The notes under the pieces were generated by a model. The model was not told where the DNA came from and did no database searches. It was given only the letters and a program-made list of their open reading frames with translations. This document shows positions 2,794 through 19,253 of a DNA stretch of 20,000 nt, in pieces; position 1 is the stretch's first letter, and each line of letters begins with the position of its first letter. A program made the position numbers and the translations under genes. This DNA is from an uncultured virus (IMG/VR IMGVR_UViG_3300025128_000028) (lineage: Duplodnaviria > Heunggongvirae > Uroviricota > Caudoviricetes): the IMG/VR virus record IMGVR_UViG_3300025128_000028; one strand, written 5' to 3'.

Positions 2794-5199
2794 CTACCAT
2801 TGTGTCATGGTAGTTTGTGATCCCCTTCCCATCAATATATCAATACTGATTTGCATTGGCTCACATACTTGGCTCATTACACTTTCTAAACTATCCATAT
2901 ATTTTTCCTTATCAATATCACTACGGTTAGCCATACTTAGTGGACATACTTTGGGATCTTTCCACGTTTTTATAAACTCTACAAACTGTCCCTTCTTCAC
3001 CTTGCCAAGTTGTTCACCAGCTTTAACTGCTTGTGGTTTTGTCTTATATTCGCTAGGTTCTTTGGCAACCATGACCTTAAATGACAGTTGATCTAGTGGT
3101 ATAGAATCAAAATTGTCTATTACAGATTTGATAACATACTTCACTTCTTCTTTTACCTCGTTAAAATCTGATATATTTTGAATTGGAATTAATTTTTGCA
3201 GAACATCAGTAAATAATTGTTTTACAAACGGTGGTGTATTTGATTTTTTACCACTCAAACCTTTAATATCTAACGTTCCGTCAGTTTTTACACCAAAATA
3301 ATTCTTCTTTCTATCACTTAATACTAAATATTTATACTCTTTTTCCATTTCCAAGTCTATTGAATAGTTGTCTTTACAGTATTTTATCAGGGTATCTATC
3401 TGTTTTTGGGTAGGTTTATGGACAAAAACACTATCGGTATCACCATATAGTACGGGTAATGATTCAGAATTTGCTACTTTAATTGTTTCCATAATTATAT
3501 TTCGACCAATGGCAGTTACAGCTTCGGCAGTTGGTAGGAAATATAACGAGAAGGTTTCAGCACCAATTACACCATAACTTGCATTGAGGAATACTTTTAG
3601 TGCTTGGGCTATTGTAGTGTTTATATCACGATCCTTTTTTGTCTTTGCCATTTTGCTTAGAATCTTGAAGTGATTTACCCTTAATTCCTTTAATGAGCCA
3701 ATTAATAATGATGCCATTCCAATCTTTTTCGTGCATGACCAATGTTGTGTGTACGGGATTATATTGTTTTTGCATTGTTCGTGCCTACAACATACTGTTT
3801 CATACGATATATTCCGAGTTTTGATAATACTTGGATATAGACTTGCGAAATCAAGAACAGATACTTGAAAGTGTATTCCACTCACAGGCTTTAATACTTC
3901 AGCACCCTGATATTTCTTGCCCCTCACCCCTGCAATCGTAGTTCCTTCAATTTTAGGGAAATCTGCATTTCGAGGGATCATTTGACCATTTATTCTATGT
4001 TCATTATAGAACATACTCTTGATCCAATTAGATATACTAAGCCTTGATATATCGTCAATAGGCATATTAGCAACCCTACATAATATAACAAGCAAGTTCA
4101 TAACCAAGTCGTTGTTATAGTGCGACAATTCATACGTTAATCTACTATCGTTATAACAATATTTACTCAACAGATTAAGTGATATATCAGCAAGACTACC
4201 AACATACTCTACTTTTTTCTCACCCAACATAGCCTCACTAACATCGTCTAATTTATCCGTAACATACTTTCCACCAAAGGCATATATTTTGAGGGAACGA
4301 TTTGAAAATACACTATATAAGTCAATATGAATACCATTGTTCAACGTAGCCTTTTCCTTCATCATCTTGAACGGATTATATTCTAGTTCAAGAACATTGG
4401 CACGATTATATAAATATGGCATATCAAATATATCACCATTATATGTTAGAACAATAGGATAGGAATCTATGATTCTAAATGCCTCTTTTAGCAATTCTTT
4501 CTCGTCCTCAAACCAAACAATTTCATATTTTCTGCCGACTTCTTCTTCGCCCATAGCAATTTCAGGTCTTTTAAGAGTTAATACCTTCTGCATATCTTCC
4601 GAGTGAAATGATATTGCTGTGATTCTTTCTTTTGCTTTACTACTGTCAGGCATTGTATCACCAACTTCCACCTCAATATCAAATGCAAGTCGTTTTATAT
4701 TCGGTATATTTTGACCAAGAAGATTAGCCCACTTACCCACCTGTTTTGAAAATAGTTCTGTATCTACGACTGAATCCATGTCTATATTTTTTAATTGTAT
4801 TGTATCAGTTGATTCTATTGGCGATATATTGTGGTTATCAATGTCATACCAAGTTCCAACCACATATTTTTTGTCATATAAGAAACTTTGATAATATTTT
4901 ATATCACCTTCCCAACATATCCCACTATCACGCAGGTCATATATAACGCTTGGATTATCAACCCTCACCCGAAGCATGGACACATATTCATCTTTTATTA
5001 CATCATATATATCGACTTCCTCTATATTATTTATACCTAGAATCCCATTCAGTTCAGATTTTTGGGACGGTTTTACATAACAATATTGCTTATATTCCGA
5101 GTCGTCCACCATTATAATTTTATTACTAAGAGGCTCATAAAATTTGAGTATAATCTTTCTATTTTGAAATACACAAGATAATAATATACACTTTGTTAT
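2794..5199 (-). CDS. polB: Family B DNA polymerase, archaeal PolB1-like, ~801 aa, probable ATA start
   Basis: Exo motifs FDIEV, YNGDIFD, YCYND; pol motifs DFASLYPSII, KVFLNASYG, YGDTDS, KKNYFG, KGLSGKKSNTPPF; PIP-like tail QTTMTQW. Frame stays open 29 codons upstream of ATG 5112 (ITKCILLSCVFQNRKIILKFYEP). Confidence 0.97.
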   Translation of the reverse strand: MTKCILLSCVFQNRKIILKFYEPLSNKIIMVDDSEYKQYCYVKPSQKSELNGILGINNIEEVDIYDVIKDEYVSMLRVRVDNPSVIYDLRDSGICWEGDIKYYQSFLYDKKYVVGTWYDIDNHNISPIESTDTIQLKNIDMDSVVDTELFSKQVGKWANLLGQNIPNIKRLAFDIEVEVGDTMPDSSKAKERITAISFHSEDMQKVLTLKRPEIAMGEEEVGRKYEIVWFEDEKELLKEAFRIIDSYPIVLTYNGDIFDMPYLYNRANVLELEYNPFKMMKEKATLNNGIHIDLYSVFSNRSLKIYAFGGKYVTDKLDDVSEAMLGEKKVEYVGSLADISLNLLSKYCYNDSRLTYELSHYNNDLVMNLLVILCRVANMPIDDISRLSISNWIKSMFYNEHRINGQMIPRNADFPKIEGTTIAGVRGKKYQGAEVLKPVSGIHFQVSVLDFASLYPSIIKTRNISYETVCCRHEQCKNNIIPYTQHWSCTKKIGMASLLIGSLKELRVNHFKILSKMAKTKKDRDINTTIAQALKVFLNASYGVIGAETFSLYFLPTAEAVTAIGRNIIMETIKVANSESLPVLYGDTDSVFVHKPTQKQIDTLIKYCKDNYSIDLEMEKEYKYLVLSDRKKNYFGVKTDGTLDIKGLSGKKSNTPPFVKQLFTDVLQKLIPIQNISDFNEVKEEVKYVIKSVIDNFDSIPLDQLSFKVMVAKEPSEYKTKPQAVKAGEQLGKVKKGQFVEFIKTWKDPKVCPLSMANRSDIDKEKYMDSLESVMSQVCEPMQISIDILMGRGSQTTMTQW

Positions 5200-5741
5200 A
5201 TCTGATCACCCCAACTGTCCCAACCTTCTGCACGTTTCCGAGCAAAAAGTTCAATTCGTGGTATATCACCACATAGTTCCACTATTTTATCTCTTATTAT
5301 ATCAGGTTTTTGTGAGTGTTCCCCTCTTGGACTCATTACAACACTTGATATATAATTACTAACTACTATTGGTTTTCCTTTCACCCCTATTAAACAACAT
5401 TCACAGTTCGATTTTGTATAATATCCTATACCGAAAAATGGTTTGCCGTTCTTTTTATTAGTTTTTATCCATGAGAAACCAAGCGTTTTATATTTAAAAC
5501 CCCATGCGTTTATTGTTTCTAATCCTTCTCGTAAGTTAGGGAACGTTGTCCACAAAAATAACATACAATTAGTATCAGCAATATCATTTACAGGTAGGTT
5601 TTTTATATCTTCTAATGACATTGTTTTATAATGTACTGTTGCTCCGCCACATAATCGTGCGTGTTTATCACGCTTATCCCTGTAGCTCCAAGCGGGATCA
5701 GCATATATTATATTATATTTTTTATCTGTTGGAAAATCCAA
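5196..5741 (-). CDS. MT-A70 family N6-adenine methyltransferase
   Basis: IIYADPAW catalytic motif, LFLWTT, WGFKYKT..WIK, HSQKP, RIELFAR, GWDSWGDQ. Confidence 0.95.
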   Translation of the reverse strand: MDFPTDKKYNIIYADPAWSYRDKRDKHARLCGGATVHYKTMSLEDIKNLPVNDIADTNCMLFLWTTFPNLREGLETINAWGFKYKTLGFSWIKTNKKNGKPFFGIGYYTKSNCECCLIGVKGKPIVVSNYISSVVMSPRGEHSQKPDIIRDKIVELCGDIPRIELFARKRAEGWDSWGDQI

Positions 5742-6470: not shown

Positions 6471-6686
6471 TTAGATTTGACTAGAATTATATTGTCCTCG
6501 TATATATTTATTAAAATATTTTCCTTTTGATTCTGCTCTTTTAAATTCTGACCATACGTCTTTGGGAACACCTTCGCACTCATATACTTCGCTTCCTTCA
6601 CCGATATATATCACCATACGTTCAGTTTCAGTATTATATTTTGCACCACGAATCCATGACATACCTGCAAAACTATCTTCACTCAA
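6471..6686 (-). CDS. KTSC-domain protein
   Basis: SWIRGAKYN...VYECEGVP..VW.EF..AESKGKYFNKYIRGQY matches the KTSC pattern. Confidence 0.9.
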   Translation of the reverse strand: MSEDSFAGMSWIRGAKYNTETERMVIYIGEGSEVYECEGVPKDVWSEFKRAESKGKYFNKYIRGQYNSSQI

Positions 6687-9731: not shown

Positions 9732-9934
9732 GTTGGTGTCCCCTCATATAACATGGTAGAAAATCCATTGTTGGTAAAATGTGCCGAAGTACATAATATC
9801 CATTCTAATACTTCAATTTCAGCACAAATTATATTATAATCTTCTTGTGTCATTTCATTAGGGGGTGTGTCCCATTCTTTCACCTGTTGTTTTAATTCCT
9901 CTAAGTGTTCATATATTTCTTGTTTAGTTTTCAA
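9728..9934 (-). CDS. Hypothetical protein (start refined to TTG 9934), IEVLEWIL motif
   Basis: GGAGTGA Shine-Dalgarno upstream of TTG. Confidence 0.7.
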   Translation of the reverse strand: MKTKQEIYEHLEELKQQVKEWDTPPNEMTQEDYNIICAEIEVLEWILCTSAHFTNNGFSTMLYEGTPT

Positions 9935-10076
9935 TTTTTTCACTCCAAATTTTTTCACTCCTTAAAAATCCTTCACCACATTCAATATGACATGGTTTGC
10001 CTTTATGAAAAAATGCACCATGTTTGTTTACACGGTAGTCAGAAATATATTTTTTACAAAATTTACATTTATTCAA
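9924..10076 (-). CDS. 50-aa CxxC...CHxxC zinc microprotein, tandem paralog B
   Basis: MNKCKFCKKYISDYRVNKHGAFFHKGKPCHIECGEGFLRSEKIWSEKIEN, read manually. Confidence 0.75.
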   Translation of the reverse strand: MNKCKFCKKYISDYRVNKHGAFFHKGKPCHIECGEGFLRSEKIWSEKIEN

Positions 10077-10198
10077 TTTTTTCACTCCAAATTTTTTCAC
10101 TCCTTAAAAATCCTTCACCACATTCAATATGACATGGTTTGCCTTTATGAAAAAATGCTTCAAATAAATTTATATATTTTTTACAAAATTTACATTTA
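9930..10198. repeat. Tandem duplication: identical 87-nt and 27-nt blocks around a divergent middle
   Basis: 9930-10016 = 10072-10158; 10045-10071 = 10172-10198. Confidence 0.95.
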
Positions 10199-10203
10199 GT
10201 CAA
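10069..10203 (-). CDS. 44-aa CxxC...CHxxC zinc microprotein, tandem paralog A
   Basis: MTKCKFCKKYINLFEAFFHKGKPCHIECGEGFLRSEKIWSEKIE, read manually. Confidence 0.75.
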   Translation of the reverse strand: MTKCKFCKKYINLFEAFFHKGKPCHIECGEGFLRSEKIWSEKIE

Positions 10204-10343
10204 TTTGATTTCCCCTTCTTTGATTCTGAATATGTTTTGGGCATATATTTTGGATCAATAGCCATTCTACCAAGTTCTGCATATACATGGTCAATAACTT
10301 CCTTAGTATTAGGACGATCACATATTGGGCATTTTTCACACAA
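10200..10343 (-). CDS. 47-aa microprotein (MCEKCPICDRP...)
   Basis: AAGGTGA Shine-Dalgarno, TTG start, stop overlaps the next TTG. Confidence 0.65.
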   Translation of the reverse strand: MCEKCPICDRPNTKEVIDHVYAELGRMAIDPKYMPKTYSESKKGKSN

Positions 10344-10594: not shown

Positions 10595-10861
10595 TTATAT
10601 AATCCCCTCATTACCGTTAAATTTAGTACGAAATAATCTTTTACTTTCACTTTCAATTATATTGTCCCTTATCATTTTCACATAGTCAAATCCTACTTCG
10701 TCATAATATTTTGGAAAATGTTTGGCTACAAATGGCACAACCATATCAGTTATAGATTTTTTATCATAACCTTGATTGGCTTTAATCATGACAAATTTTT
10801 CGATTGAATGACCAACTGTTTCACGTTGACTAGCACATGAATCACATTGACATAAATCCAA
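10595..10861 (-). CDS. Hypothetical protein, N-terminal CxCxxC
   Basis: GAGGTGA Shine-Dalgarno, TTG start. Confidence 0.75.
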   Translation of the reverse strand: MDLCQCDSCASQRETVGHSIEKFVMIKANQGYDKKSITDMVVPFVAKHFPKYYDEVGFDYVKMIRDNIIESESKRLFRTKFNGNEGII

Positions 10862-10901
10862 TTATATATTCACCTCAAAAAAGGGGGAGTGGGAAGACAT
10901 T

Positions 10902-11288
10902 TTAGTTATCTTCCTCCTTTTCTAAAAATTTTTTTAAAACAGCAAAGTCCACGCCTAATATTTCGTTATATAGTCCGTATTGTCTTTCTTTTGGGTAATC
11001 ATATAGATCGCTAATGATATACTCTATAGAAGATATTAAATTATCCCTTGTTTTTGCGTACATATATTTTTTACTTTGCAATTCAGGTCTAATTTTTTTT
11101 CTTTTTTCGTCTTCGTTTTTATAAGTTCCACCGACTTTTAGCCTATAATAATCTAGTGCCATGTCAATATCTTTTGACAACCATTCAATGTAGTCTTTTA
11201 AAGAAACTAACTGATCAATTATTGGCATTTCGGCTTTTCTTATTTTAGCGTTTGCACTTTGTTGTCCGATTTTTTGTTTTTGTTTCAT
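10902..11288 (-). CDS. Hypothetical protein
   Basis: 128-aa ORF with TTTATAAA box about 30 nt upstream. Confidence 0.8.
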   Translation of the reverse strand: MKQKQKIGQQSANAKIRKAEMPIIDQLVSLKDYIEWLSKDIDMALDYYRLKVGGTYKNEDEKRKKIRPELQSKKYMYAKTRDNLISSIEYIISDLYDYPKERQYGLYNEILGVDFAVLKKFLEKEEDN

Positions 11289-11360
11289 TATTAATCTCTA
11301 ATAACACATATTATTTATAAATCTTTACCTATTTCTAAAACGCTGTTATAAAAATAAAAA

Positions 11361-11481
11361 TGGTGTCGCACTTGGAATAATGGAAAGGTTAAATTCCTTA
11401 AAACCTTTGAAGAAGCCCACAAACGAGGTTGTGAAGCAAATGAATAGATCAAAGCGTGGTCTTCTTCTACTCCAATGCGAC
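11361..11481 (-). ncRNA. 121-nt three-way-junction RNA with an acceptor-like stem and 3' ACCA
   Basis: GTCGCA-TTGGAGTA pairs with TATTCCAA-G-TGCGAC, followed by A-CCA and a T-run; arms GAAGAAG-A-CCAC/GTGG-G-CTTCTTC and AAAGGTT/AACCTTT. Confidence 0.75.
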
Positions 11482-11613
11482 TTGAGAAAGTTTGGTAGAT
11501 TGGATTTATGAGTCCGTTATCAAACATTCTGAATCTATTACGTTAATGCCTAATATTAGTGTTTGGTATCATTAGTATCTATACTTTGCATACTATTAAT
11601 AATAAAACTTTGA

Positions 11614-11645: not shown

Positions 11646-11998
11646 TTTAATATTATACCGTACTATACCGTACTTAAATACTCATATTAATTTTTAGTTC
11701 AAAAATATATTATATATTCAGGAAAACCATCATCCGTTACATCATCCAGAGATGTTACTGTTACTGGTTTCCTGACATATATATATAAAATATATTGTGC
11801 CTAATAGTATATTTCGTGCCTATTTTTTTCAATTTAGGTCTAGGCAGAATTGTGTGGTTTGCCAAGACTTGGGTAATGTGTGCCGTGTATATATTTTAGA
11901 AACATTTATACAATTTTTCTAGCCTGTTTATAACGCTGTTATATTTTTTCTTTCAATTTTTGATTGCAAAATGAGTAGAAAAAATGGGGGGGTTGTTA

Positions 11999-16646: not shown

Positions 16647-17657
16647 TTAATTCAAATTTCCTTGATTTAATTTTTCTATTGATTCTGTTAATTTTTGGAT
16701 TAATACTTTTTCAACTTGATCAAAGTTTTGAGTTTCATAAAGCATACCTCTAAATAATTTTCTCATGGGTTTTACGGTGTCTTCAATGTGATTAAACCAA
16801 ATACAAAATATGGGTATTTCTTGGTTTTTTGCTTCTATGACTGAACGTTCCATTAAATTACGTGGTATATCTGAATTTTCAAATTTTAATCTCATTCCTT
16901 TTTTTAGTGATCTTGATCTGCCTGTATAATCTCGATCAATAGTCCAAACAATTTCTGGGTATCCGTCAGTTATCATTAAAATTAATTTTTTGTTATCTGA
17001 ATTAGTTTTTAAAATTTCTTCAACGGCATAATTAATATTCAAATTATGATTATCGTGATAATCTTCAAAGTCAGCGTGGATACGTCCGCATTTTTCTTTT
17101 TTGTCGATTATTTCAACAACGTGCTGATAGTCATGCGATTTAGCTGAAAAAGCTATAACTTTGAAATTTACTTGATCTGATTTTTCTAGGGCTTGAAAAA
17201 TTGAAGCGGATAAATCAGCTAATTTTTGATTTAATCTACTCATTGAACCTGAACAATCAATTAATAAAATTATGTCGATTCCGTTTTTTTCTGATTCTTC
17301 TTCAAAAAATTCTAAGTTTTGAATTGTCTTTGCACGTTTATCAACTTTGTATCTGATAAATTCATTAATTTCTAAATCTCCACTTTCAGAAATTTCCGTT
17401 GTAATTTGTCCCTTAATTTTATTCAATGTTTGTGTTAATCTGTTTGATAATTGGGAATTTATTGTAAAACCCTTATCAGAACGATTTGTAAAAATTGGTT
17501 TTTTCTCGTGTGATAATTTGAATAAATCTTCTTCAACAAGATCCCAATCAGCATTAACACCGTATCCGCCTGAAGATCCACCATTTGACATAATGAATCT
17601 AGAATAGTTTTCTTTATAACTCTTGTGCATCTGTGGACTTAGTGAAATTTTGATCAT
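16647..17657 (-). CDS. vWA (MIDAS) domain protein, CobT/CbbO-like AAA partner
   Basis: SGDLEI, LLIDCSGSM (DxSxS) and LMITDGYP; start uncertain (17657 or 17630). Confidence 0.9.
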   Translation of the reverse strand: MIKISLSPQMHKSYKENYSRFIMSNGGSSGGYGVNADWDLVEEDLFKLSHEKKPIFTNRSDKGFTINSQLSNRLTQTLNKIKGQITTEISESGDLEINEFIRYKVDKRAKTIQNLEFFEEESEKNGIDIILLIDCSGSMSRLNQKLADLSASIFQALEKSDQVNFKVIAFSAKSHDYQHVVEIIDKKEKCGRIHADFEDYHDNHNLNINYAVEEILKTNSDNKKLILMITDGYPEIVWTIDRDYTGRSRSLKKGMRLKFENSDIPRNLMERSVIEAKNQEIPIFCIWFNHIEDTVKPMRKLFRGMLYETQNFDQVEKVLIQKLTESIEKLNQGNLN

Positions 17658-17681
17658 TTTTTACCGCTTTTTTCGATTTGT

Positions 17682-17773
17682 TAGGAATGTTAAAATCCTT
17701 AGCTTATTAAATGTTTGTTTTTTCAGTTTTTCGGTAAAATTTAACCTAAGCTAAAAAAGTTGCACTAAGCTAA
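17682..17773. promoter_or_regulatory. Degenerate operator/TATA copy C plus CTAAGCTAA pair
   Basis: 17677-17695 = 19485-19503; CTAAGCTAA at 17746 and 17765. Confidence 0.65.
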
Positions 17774-17840
17774 CTTTTTAATTTTAAAAAATATATATTT
17801 TTTTGAAATATATAAAAAAAAGGAAAAAAGAAATTTAGAT

Positions 17841-19253
17841 TTAATTGAAAATTAAATCTATTTCTCTTTGAATGGTTTTTCGATCTTCTTTGTCGCTAAA
17901 TTTTGTTATATAATTTGCTTCAAAGCTTGTTTGTACTGCATTTGGTATTTCCAAATGTTCGAATTCTTCAATATCTTCTAAAATTGCCTTCATTGAACGA
18001 ACGCTTAGAGATTCTTCATTTGACAATTTCATTTGACCTTGTAAAAGATCTAGTTTGTCGTCCAATTTACAAAGTTTTTCTTTGAATTCTTTTGAAACGT
18101 TGTAAGGTTCAAAAATTTTCATTTTTGTTTCAAACGTTAAACGCTTCATTTCTATGTATCTAAACCTATTTCGAATAGGCTTGTTTAATGGATTTGTTCC
18201 GCTGTAGTTGTCATTCATAGTAATGACAACATTGAATTTTACACCTTTATTGATTTTTATTCGTCCGTCAGGCAAATCAATAAAGCCTGTGTCGTCAGTT
18301 AGTCCCTGTAATAAAATTTGGACTTTTGGAATTAATGCGTTTCCTTCATCTAGGATTAAAATTGCTTTGCCTGTTTTGTTGCCTGTTAAAACAGCTTTGA
18401 CAATCATTCCGCATACGATTTTTACTCGTTCTTGTTCGTCTATTGTTTTTGATCCGATTAGATCATTTTTTCTAGAGTCAGCAGAACAAGAGTATTTGAA
18501 AACACTTGTATCACGTTCATGACCATACAAACAAGCCAATTCGGTTTTACCTGTTCCCGCCTGACCAACTAAAACAATATGTTTTCCGCTATCCATTAAA
18601 GCGAAAAATATTTGTTTTTCGTTTTTTTGCTCAAAATATTTTTTGGCTTCTGCTATTTTGAATTCAGAAGGATCGAATACAATAAATTTTTGAGGTATGT
18701 TTTCAGATTTAAAACCGCTAAATCTATCAGCTATTCTTTTTTCATGAGCAATTTTTTTGGCTTCTGCTATTTTTTTTGCTTCAATTTCGATAGCTAATTT
18801 TTTAGCTCGTTCTAATTCTTCAGCTTTTTTCAAGTTTTCGATTCTTGTTTTTTCTAATTCTTCAGCTTGGATTTGTTGCATTTCTTGGCTTTGCCTTAGT
18901 GCTTCTTGTCTTCTGCTGATAGATTCAGAAGATTCCGAATTTTCAAAAGTTGATTCGGTGTCTTGTTTTTCGGTTGATTCTTGTTCGGTTTTTTCTTCTT
19001 GGCTTTGACTTTGAGAAAATTTATAAAATTTTCTTATTGTCGAACCTTGACTTTGTTGAGTTTTGCTTGTAAAACCTCTAAGATATTTTGTCAAAGATTC
19101 TTCAAAAGTCAAATCTTTTGTGTTGATATCTCGTTCAAGCATGGTTGAAAATTTACCTAACAAGGATCTAGTAGGTTGAGAATTTTGCATTTTACCCTGT
19201 GATTGTTCACTAGATATAAAATCCTCTATTTCTGTTGGTGTGATTTGCTTCAA
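17841..19253 (-). CDS. MoxR-type (CbbQ/NirQ/CobS-like) AAA+ ATPase with long N-terminal extension
   Basis: Walker A GQAGTGKT, DLIG, Walker B ILILDEGN, TMN..YSGT.PLNKPIRNRF. Confidence 0.92.
   Translation of the reverse strand: MKQITPTEIEDFISSEQSQGKMQNSQPTRSLLGKFSTMLERDINTKDLTFEESLTKYLRGFTSKTQQSQGSTIRKFYKFSQSQSQEEKTEQESTEKQDTESTFENSESSESISRRQEALRQSQEMQQIQAEELEKTRIENLKKAEELERAKKLAIEIEAKKIAEAKKIAHEKRIADRFSGFKSENIPQKFIVFDPSEFKIAEAKKYFEQKNEKQIFFALMDSGKHIVLVGQAGTGKTELACLYGHERDTSVFKYSCSADSRKNDLIGSKTIDEQERVKIVCGMIVKAVLTGNKTGKAILILDEGNALIPKVQILLQGLTDDTGFIDLPDGRIKINKGVKFNVVITMNDNYSGTNPLNKPIRNRFRYIEMKRLTFETKMKIFEPYNVSKEFKEKLCKLDDKLDLLQGQMKLSNEESLSVRSMKAILEDIEEFEHLEIPNAVQTSFEANYITKFSDKEDRKTIQREIDLIFN

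Follow-up and report, generated by a model that had tools for sequence, protein, structure and literature searches.

The minus strand of the window (the whole 20,000-nucleotide stretch of viral DNA analyzed here) encodes, on the best reading, an uncatalogued viral RNA that mimics the end of a tRNA but is not a tRNA and has no Rfam family. The existence of a real structured RNA can be asserted with high confidence, a judgment based on its fold and its covariation and not on the terminal ACCA alone, and it is on balance probable that its tRNA-like end is functional. The role placed first for this stand-alone viral non-coding RNA, a decoy for tRNA(CAU), is put forward tentatively and falls short of probable. 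The features of the locus, from the promoter to the downstream gene, are as follows.

11573-11595, unstranded: palindromic operator-like site TAGTAT-N11-ATACTA, with a putative operator function
11552-11559, minus strand: TATA-like box, of degenerate sequence in the window (CTAATATT) and ~29 nt upstream of 11530
11361-11530, minus strand: whole predicted type A non-coding RNA of ~170 nt, its 5' end placed by TATA spacing
11485-11530, minus strand: hairpin H1 at the 5' end, its sequence almost invariant (1 of 49 columns varies)
11505-11512, minus strand: loop CUCAUAAA closing H1, resembling the tRNA-Met anticodon loop CUCAUAA
11468-11481, minus strand: 5' strand of the terminal stem P1 (7-bp acceptor-like part plus 7 bp), with 70 of 70 cells paired in five sequences
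11409-11467, minus strand: long arm P2 with a hypervariable apical region (11455-11421), stem cells 98% paired
11384-11408, minus strand: hairpin P3, not a T-arm, forming in five of five individual folds
11365-11383, minus strand: junction strand CCAU and 3' strand of P1 with a bulged A (11372)
11361-11364, minus strand: discriminator A and CCA in four of five distinct sequences, AACA in L018
11350-11360, minus strand: T tract, a likely archaeal terminator, with at least four T right after the end in five of five sequences
11315-11527, minus strand: overlapping 70-codon ORF, not a conserved gene
10902-11288, minus strand: downstream 128-aa gene of unassigned function, the synteny anchor, with its own TATA-like box at 11321-11314

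Fold of the 121-nt element

The 121-nt element runs from 11481 to 11361 on the minus strand and is followed directly by the T tract. Its two ends pair through 7 bp, the bulged A, and a further 7 bp, and this terminal stem meets a 7+4-bp arm with a 35-nt apical region (P2) and a 7-bp hairpin (P3) in a three-way junction. The minimum free energy of the fold is −37.8 kcal/mol (z −4.91), with none of 200 shuffles as stable, and the 14-bp paired ends with one bulge, the three-way junction, and the non-cloverleaf body described in an earlier, sequence-only reading of this DNA were thus reproduced. The plus strand of the element folds weaker (z −2.53). Pair probabilities are 0.64-1.0 in the terminal stem, the 7-bp arm, and the hairpin, and only 0.38 in the 4-bp CCAC/GUGG extension of the P2 arm. 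ARAGORN calls no gene in the element and Rfam returned only chance-level matches (E 0.36 elsewhere in the window, E 8.4 on the opposite strand, and two in a type B locus, see below), in line with the earlier statement that the family was not recognizable.

Homologs and covariation

The homolog search was anchored on the downstream 128-aa gene, for which a first scan of viral contigs gave no match and a metagenome scan gave eight loci. The same RNA (type A) was found in six of these (L016, L017, L018, L019, L020, and L023) and a different RNA (type B) in L021 and L022, the latter type being present also in L011 and in L012 (L012 and L021 are one contig). As L017 has exactly the window sequence, the two entered the counts as one; L016, identical through P3 and then continuing as ~60 nt of T-rich sequence, an apparent sequencing fault, was left out of the counts. 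The type A set therefore comprised five distinct full-length sequences, the window and four homologs.

Across these five sequences 194 of 195 stem cells are paired, whereas slid registers pair only 25-59%. Three of the 39 pairs have changed on both sides. The score of the alignment is attained by 2 of 500 shuffles, although these shuffle figures are not probabilities, since the sequences are few and related and one of them supplied the structure. For the same reason, with about three lineages represented, the covariation evidence is good and not formal. Within P1, four of the 14 pairs vary, two of them on both sides, including a change from G-C to A-U at acceptor position 4, and the fold z of the element lies between −3.6 and −5.4 in all five sequences. 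The loops diverge while the stems hold: 38 of 41 columns of the P2 apical region and 11 of 25 columns of P3 are variable, and the P3 loop, of 11 nt in the window, is reduced to 4 nt in three homologs. Swaps in the stems are of the G-U/A-U and G-C/G-U kinds, which are tolerated on one strand only and so indicate an RNA of the minus strand. The proposal of a structured RNA is hence borne out by compensatory changes in its homologs.

A model of the RNA, R1, recovered six copies in full length, which score 174-197 bits, and a seventh that is truncated, five of the six having been used to build it and the sixth (L017) being the window sequence. A sixth variant, on a contig of run X12, differs from the window by nine substitutions (six apical, two at the P2 mismatch, and one converting G-U to A-U in P1) and nine gap letters (eight apical and one in the T tract), with the acceptor and ACCA unchanged. 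Nothing above 13 bits was found with R1 in L009-L014, L021, L022, six whole viral records, or 16 of the 39 new PolB loci, the distant-relative records searched being mostly fragments. All eight matches of an exact 17-mer of the 3' end in viral contigs were unrelated, a 19-mer of H1 had no match in the viral contig collection, and BLAST against named phages gave ten short matches attributable to chance only. At L009 4425-4560 (plus strand), a virus related more distantly has a third hairpin-rich sequence in the corresponding non-coding slot, whose first stem has UGGA/UCCA and a bulged A in common with P1; its fold is weak (z −2.1) and model R1 gives it no score.

The ACCA end

With the X12 contig added, ACCA is kept in five of six variants, and in L020 the similarity to the window stops just past ACCA and the T tract. 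The tRNA-like ACCA and T-rich terminator reported from the sequence alone therefore hold in the window and in four of the five distinct sequences and fail in L018; conservation of ACCA, on which that report was to stand or fall, is partial, the RNA in the type B slot having no CCA. The register of 7 bp, A, CCA, and T tract has a chance of ~1% for a given RNA or place. A search for the signature of a 7-bp end stem, N[A/C]CA, and a T tract gave nine non-homologous matches in 565,032 nt, four of them with CCA; this end signature is not rare by itself, and it is the one for which the element was picked, a point counted against it. The two of these nine acceptor-like matches that were inspected, in L013 and L032, lie inside reading frames and were rejected.

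The 5' hairpin and its CAU loop

A further hairpin had been noted just upstream of the element; it exists (11530-11485) and is not an extra but the most conserved part of the probable gene. H1 is predicted to fold with high pair probabilities and its one variable column keeps pairing (U-A to U-G). The fold is a prediction only, since H1 has no two-sided covariation and alone reaches z −1.3, with 19 of 200 shuffles at least as stable. Between lineages, the strands of promoter and P1 on either side of H1 are 80-88% identical. At the 18% divergence of such flanking blocks (18-20% diverged) the invariance of H1 has an expectation of 0.82^49 = 6e-5; set against the 5-7% divergence of the neighboring gene it is weak (P 0.03-0.07). 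The anticodon loops of Escherichia coli metZ, metT, and metU all read CUCAUAA, with which CUCAUAAA was compared; from a real anticodon arm, H1 differs in its loop of 8 nt and its closing stem of 3 bp. Its first six bases are found also in the unrelated type B RNA.

Promoter, transcript extent, and expression

The palindrome TAGTAT-N11-ATACTA is present in the window, L012, L018, and L022, and both of its arms are invariant in the five aligned type A sequences. The TATA-like box reads TTTATATT in L018, L019, and L020 and is degenerate in the window and L023. Archaeal TATA boxes are located about −30 from the start, and transcription probably begins near 11530, the first base of H1, predicting ~170 nt to ACCA. 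This start is uncertain, given the degenerate box in the window and L023 and a second, better TATA-like copy (TTTATATT) 84 nt upstream, at 11643-11636 of the window and also in L023, from which a longer transcript could arise in both. The full-length ~170-nt RNA folds with z −3.75 (−2.5 to −4.2 in the homologs). Palindrome and TATA-like box are common to type A and type B loci, and the next gene downstream has a TATA-like box of its own. A scan for bacterial promoters and terminators, a method ill-suited to archaea, gave nothing above shuffles. The promoter-like region suspected upstream of the element is thus supported, and the length of 121 nt originally given describes the folded 3' part, the gene being probably ~170 nt with the upstream hairpin included.

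Among the 24 listed sequencing runs, none on record as RNA covers the region. In run X24, for which an RNA-Seq label is a guess, the sole contig on 1601 bases spans 11330-11488 at a depth of 2.2, beginning 7 nt before G11481 and extending 31 nt beyond CCA. Coverage of the whole element by this contig has a probability of ~3% by chance; it is a weak hint of expression and may be DNA.

A different RNA in the sister clade

The sister clade carries the type B RNA behind the same promoter.

L012 1234-1394, plus strand: type B RNA of ~161 nt, also in L011, L021, and L022

Type B is unrelated to type A by BLAST and by model R1, has no Rfam family, and folds strongly (z −3.6 to −5.3) into a long hairpin capped by a GAAA tetraloop, a hairpin with a CUCAUAU loop, and a terminal hairpin with a T tract, its 3' end being without the acceptor-NCCA arrangement. 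The CUCAUAU sequence forms a 7-nt loop on a 7-bp stem, in which one pair changes from G-C to U-G between alleles. The six-base loop start shared by types A and B was attained in 3 of 1500 shuffles, and six shared bases anywhere in the loops, a looser test, in 46 of 1500. As the motif was spotted before the test, the recurrence of the loop in type B is no more than suggestive.

The RNA is not a tRNA, a tmRNA, or a C/D box guide RNA

Compared with a tRNA, the RNA has the 7-bp acceptor stem, the discriminator, and CCA (encoded in four of five sequences). A T-arm (5 bp with a 7-nt UUCRA loop) beside the acceptor is absent from the type A sequences, as the earlier report of no TPsiC loop had it, and the sole invariant UUCAA lies within the P2/P3 stems, without a flanking stem. 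A D-arm and an anticodon arm between the acceptor strands are likewise absent, the CAU loop being outside the acceptor, and the D-loop pattern is missing in four of the five type A sequences, with a single match in a variable loop. Without a T-arm or D-arm the RNA cannot decode, and a tRNA was rejected on these grounds, together with the want of a spliceable cloverleaf and the negative results of ARAGORN and the Rfam tRNA models. An intron-containing tRNA was also rejected: a permissive search gave 8-11 loose BHB candidates per sequence, as expected of it, and on inspection the only BHB common to all sequences is incompatible with the covarying P1, and its removal would give 58 nt without a cloverleaf. 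The acceptor strands are in the normal order, which excludes a permuted tRNA. The alanine-type acceptor of tmRNA is marked by G3-U70; here the third pair is C-G, there is no T-arm, and ARAGORN was negative, and a tmRNA was rejected too.

On the plus strand a C/D box guide RNA was rejected, the SNORD19 match being weak (E 8.4) and the CUGA box altered in three of five sequences. Kissing loops of the phi29 type were rejected as well, exceeding shuffles only in two near-identical alleles of the five and showing no cognate preference. The overlapping 70-codon ORF has frameshifts or stops elsewhere in the homologs, and the sole change in its first 16 codons is non-synonymous.

Virus, host, and genome context

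Nearly all genes of the window are on the minus strand, and they encode, among others, MCM, Mom, a family B polymerase (PolB), an MT-A70 methylase, KTSC, an AAA ATPase, and a VWA protein. The PolB of record G001 (55.9 kb) is 82% identical to that of the window, and G001 encodes a portal, a prohead protease, a major head protein, a terminase, a minor tail protein, and a UvsX-like recombinase; because this relative has head, portal, terminase, and tail genes, the virus of the window is taken to be tailed. The named relatives of the PolB share 45-58% identity with it and come from Nitrosopelagicus, Nitrosopumilus, and Nitrosopumilaceae; of the 24 listed sequencing runs, 23 have a marine label. 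The host is therefore probably a member of the marine Nitrososphaeria. Tailed viruses of this group are called marthaviruses in the accessible part of PMC9238414.

The 128-aa downstream gene has 23 close homologs and no Pfam match above the cut-off, nor a PHROG or Atlas match. The Mom-family DNA-modification gene (1488-2294), the MT-A70 methyltransferase (5196-5741), and the stand-alone KTSC-domain protein (6471-6686) are located close to the replication genes, and at 16647-19253 the VWA-domain protein adjoins the AAA ATPase (CobS-like by PHROGs), for which the viral-contig scan gave no close relative. TTG is a very frequent start codon in the window and in its relatives, for example at 10850-10870 and at many gene junctions, often within an ATAATTG stop-start junction. 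The region 9905-10210 contains an exact 87-nt direct repeat (9930-10016 and 10072-10158) and further 35-nt repeats, which suggests a recent duplication or an assembly artifact. The non-coding region 11656-11800, with GGATGATG repeats, AT-rich inverted repeats, short TAC(C/G)GTA palindromes, and a flattening GC skew, has counterparts in L009, L012, L013, L018, L022, and L023 and is a candidate replication origin or regulatory hub.

Proposed function and alternatives

In the tentatively preferred mechanism, host RNA polymerase would transcribe ~170 nt from the operator-controlled TATA promoter and stop in the U tract. The 3' 121 nt form the three-way junction, with a closing stem that copies the tRNA acceptor end, a fold supported by covariation, and the tRNase Z and CCA-adding enzyme of the host may trim or rewrite the NCCA end to give a stable RNA. 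The Met-anticodon-like loop of H1 and the acceptor stem together would mimic tRNA(CAU), and the mimic could soak up or compete for host tRNA-acting proteins, such as tRNA-cutting or CCA-modifying defense toxins. Hosts deploy tRNA-cutting toxins against phage, and an AACA allele could still mature through tRNase Z and CCA addition. In the accessible parts of the papers concerned, acceptor-like terminal stems of non-tRNAs are substrates of the CCA enzyme (PMC4477674), a Shigella VapC targets tRNA-fMet (PMC10264068), and a VapBC module is present in a Nitrosopumilus element (PMC6563490). The decoy role is ranked first as the only reading that draws on both tRNA-like features and accounts for a loop kept by the unrelated type B. 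Against it stand the AACA of L018, a type B RNA without NCCA, and the absence of R1 matches from the distant relatives searched. If it is true, viruses of a major group of marine nitrifiers would blunt tRNA-targeting defense with RNA alone, by a route other than the resistant replacement tRNAs that have been proposed for phages. Ready controls exist in the natural alleles with ACCA or AACA and in the unrelated type B.

A doubtful but serious alternative is an ordinary stable viral small RNA, in which the stem protects the ends, ACCA is coincidental, and H1 binds a host protein or RNA unrelated to tRNA. Such an RNA would account for AACA in L018, for a type B RNA filling the same slot without CCA, and for the lack of a T-arm or D-arm, and end signatures do occur by chance. 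It would leave to coincidence the exact end register, at ~1%, as well as the retention of ACCA in five of six variants and the conservation boundary of L020 just past the ACCA-T tract.

It is unlikely, though likewise a serious alternative, that the tRNA-like domain is a processing signal, at which RNase P would cut at G11481 and free the 49-nt H1 as the active RNA, the 121-nt part being a by-product, as in mascRNA, or a carrier, as in the gammaherpesvirus TMERs. The constraint on H1 is indeed one of sequence, that on the 3' domain one of structure alone, and the X24 contig begins 7 nt before G11481, although contig ends are not transcript ends. In the accessible part of PMC4919922, model substrates with a long hairpin are cut by the RNA of archaeal RNase P, and the tRNA-like structure of MALAT1 is matured by RNase P and Z. 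However, there is no T-loop for RNase P binding, the CUCAUA hairpin of type B is internal with no acceptor stem downstream, and a search for targets of H1 in 1-20 kb per allele found none.

Distinctly unlikely is a tRNA-Met mimic of new geometry, with an anticodon-like hairpin on the 5' end of the acceptor and with sister viruses swapping RNAs in the same slot while CAU is kept. If it were true, a 170-nt RNA would show a CAU loop and ACCA to methionyl-tRNA synthetase or to tRNA(CAU)-cutting nucleases, as an interchangeable RNA-only counter-defense cassette in viruses of ammonia-oxidizing archaea.

Aminoacylation of the non-cloverleaf RNA, for example by MetRS, which would make it an amino-acid carrier or a synthetase trap, is improbable. 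Discriminator A, CCA, and a CAU loop do occur in one molecule, E. coli tRNA-Met also ends in ACCA, and the available text of PMC7749636 has plant-virus tRNA-like structures being charged; the 8-nt loop, however, lies 5' of the acceptor, which is not tRNA geometry, herpesvirus tRNA-like RNAs are uncharged in the part of PMC4337559 consulted, and no partner enzyme gene was recognized among the 31 window proteins scanned. The "second aminoacyl carrier" raised in the sequence-only reading is without direct support. A processed or charged RNA would be a natural test of the minimal tRNA shape for archaeal RNase P, tRNase Z, CCA enzyme, and synthetases.

The phage P1 C4 and P4 CI RNAs are matured by RNase P and pair through their loops with the virus's own transcripts. 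An antisense immunity RNA of this kind has a similarly low probability here, even though closed ends, hypervariable loops, and the swapping of alleles are compatible with a specificity determinant and the antisense search found a 12-nt complement of the H1 loop region over a TTG start (~10862-10851). That match is of chance size, L019 alters the target and not the RNA, and no variant loop has a match longer than 11 nt within its own locus (1-20 kb per allele). A DNA-level element or a small protein gene is highly improbable: the site adjoins the repeat-rich non-coding region and the 70-codon ORF overlaps it, but the G-U-type swaps work on one strand and the ORF is frameshifted or truncated in homologs.

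Comparison with known systems

A literature search, with most subscription papers outside its scope, gave no description of a non-cloverleaf, CCA-ended RNA of an archaeal virus, and the phage candidate-RNA set of Fremin et al. (PMC10690425, seen in part) had no match in three of its six supplement files, overlap being possible. With canonical tRNAs, including the intron-containing, split, and permuted ones of archaea, the RNA shares a 7-bp acceptor-like stem starting from G, discriminator A, CCA, a T tract, and a CAU loop nearby. Unlike them, it has no T-arm or D-arm, its stem continues for seven more pairs past a bulge into a three-way junction, and its CAU loop is 5' of the acceptor.

MascRNA keeps a cloverleaf-like body. 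Like mascRNA/menRNA and the TMERs, the RNA described here joins a tRNA-like module to other RNA, is not a decoder, and may be handled by tRNA-processing enzymes, as far as the accessible parts of PMC4919922 and PMC4337559 describe those systems, the latter also noting that the TMER vtRNAs are similar in sequence to tRNAs. Those systems are eukaryotic, whereas the RNA of the window has no sequence likeness to tRNA beyond its ends and one loop.

The phage P1/P7 C4 and P4 CI RNAs are small virus RNAs with paired ends and open loops. Phage-induced regulatory RNAs are among the RNase P substrates in the part of PMC4919922 available. Unlike C4 and CI, the RNA of the window has no Rfam match, an archaeal host, and no cognate antisense targets in the 1-20 kb per allele. 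The prohead RNA of phi29, of ~170 nt, contains a three-way-junction domain of 120 nt, which a helix of the 5' and 3' ends closes; here, in contrast, there is no loop-loop complementarity across variants and the locus is among early and replication genes. The tRNA-like structures at the 3' ends of plant viruses are likewise non-cloverleaf RNAs ending in NCCA. They terminate RNA genomes and use a pseudoknotted acceptor, whereas the RNA described here, closed by a plain 5'/3' stem, is predicted to be transcribed from a gene of its own in a DNA virus.
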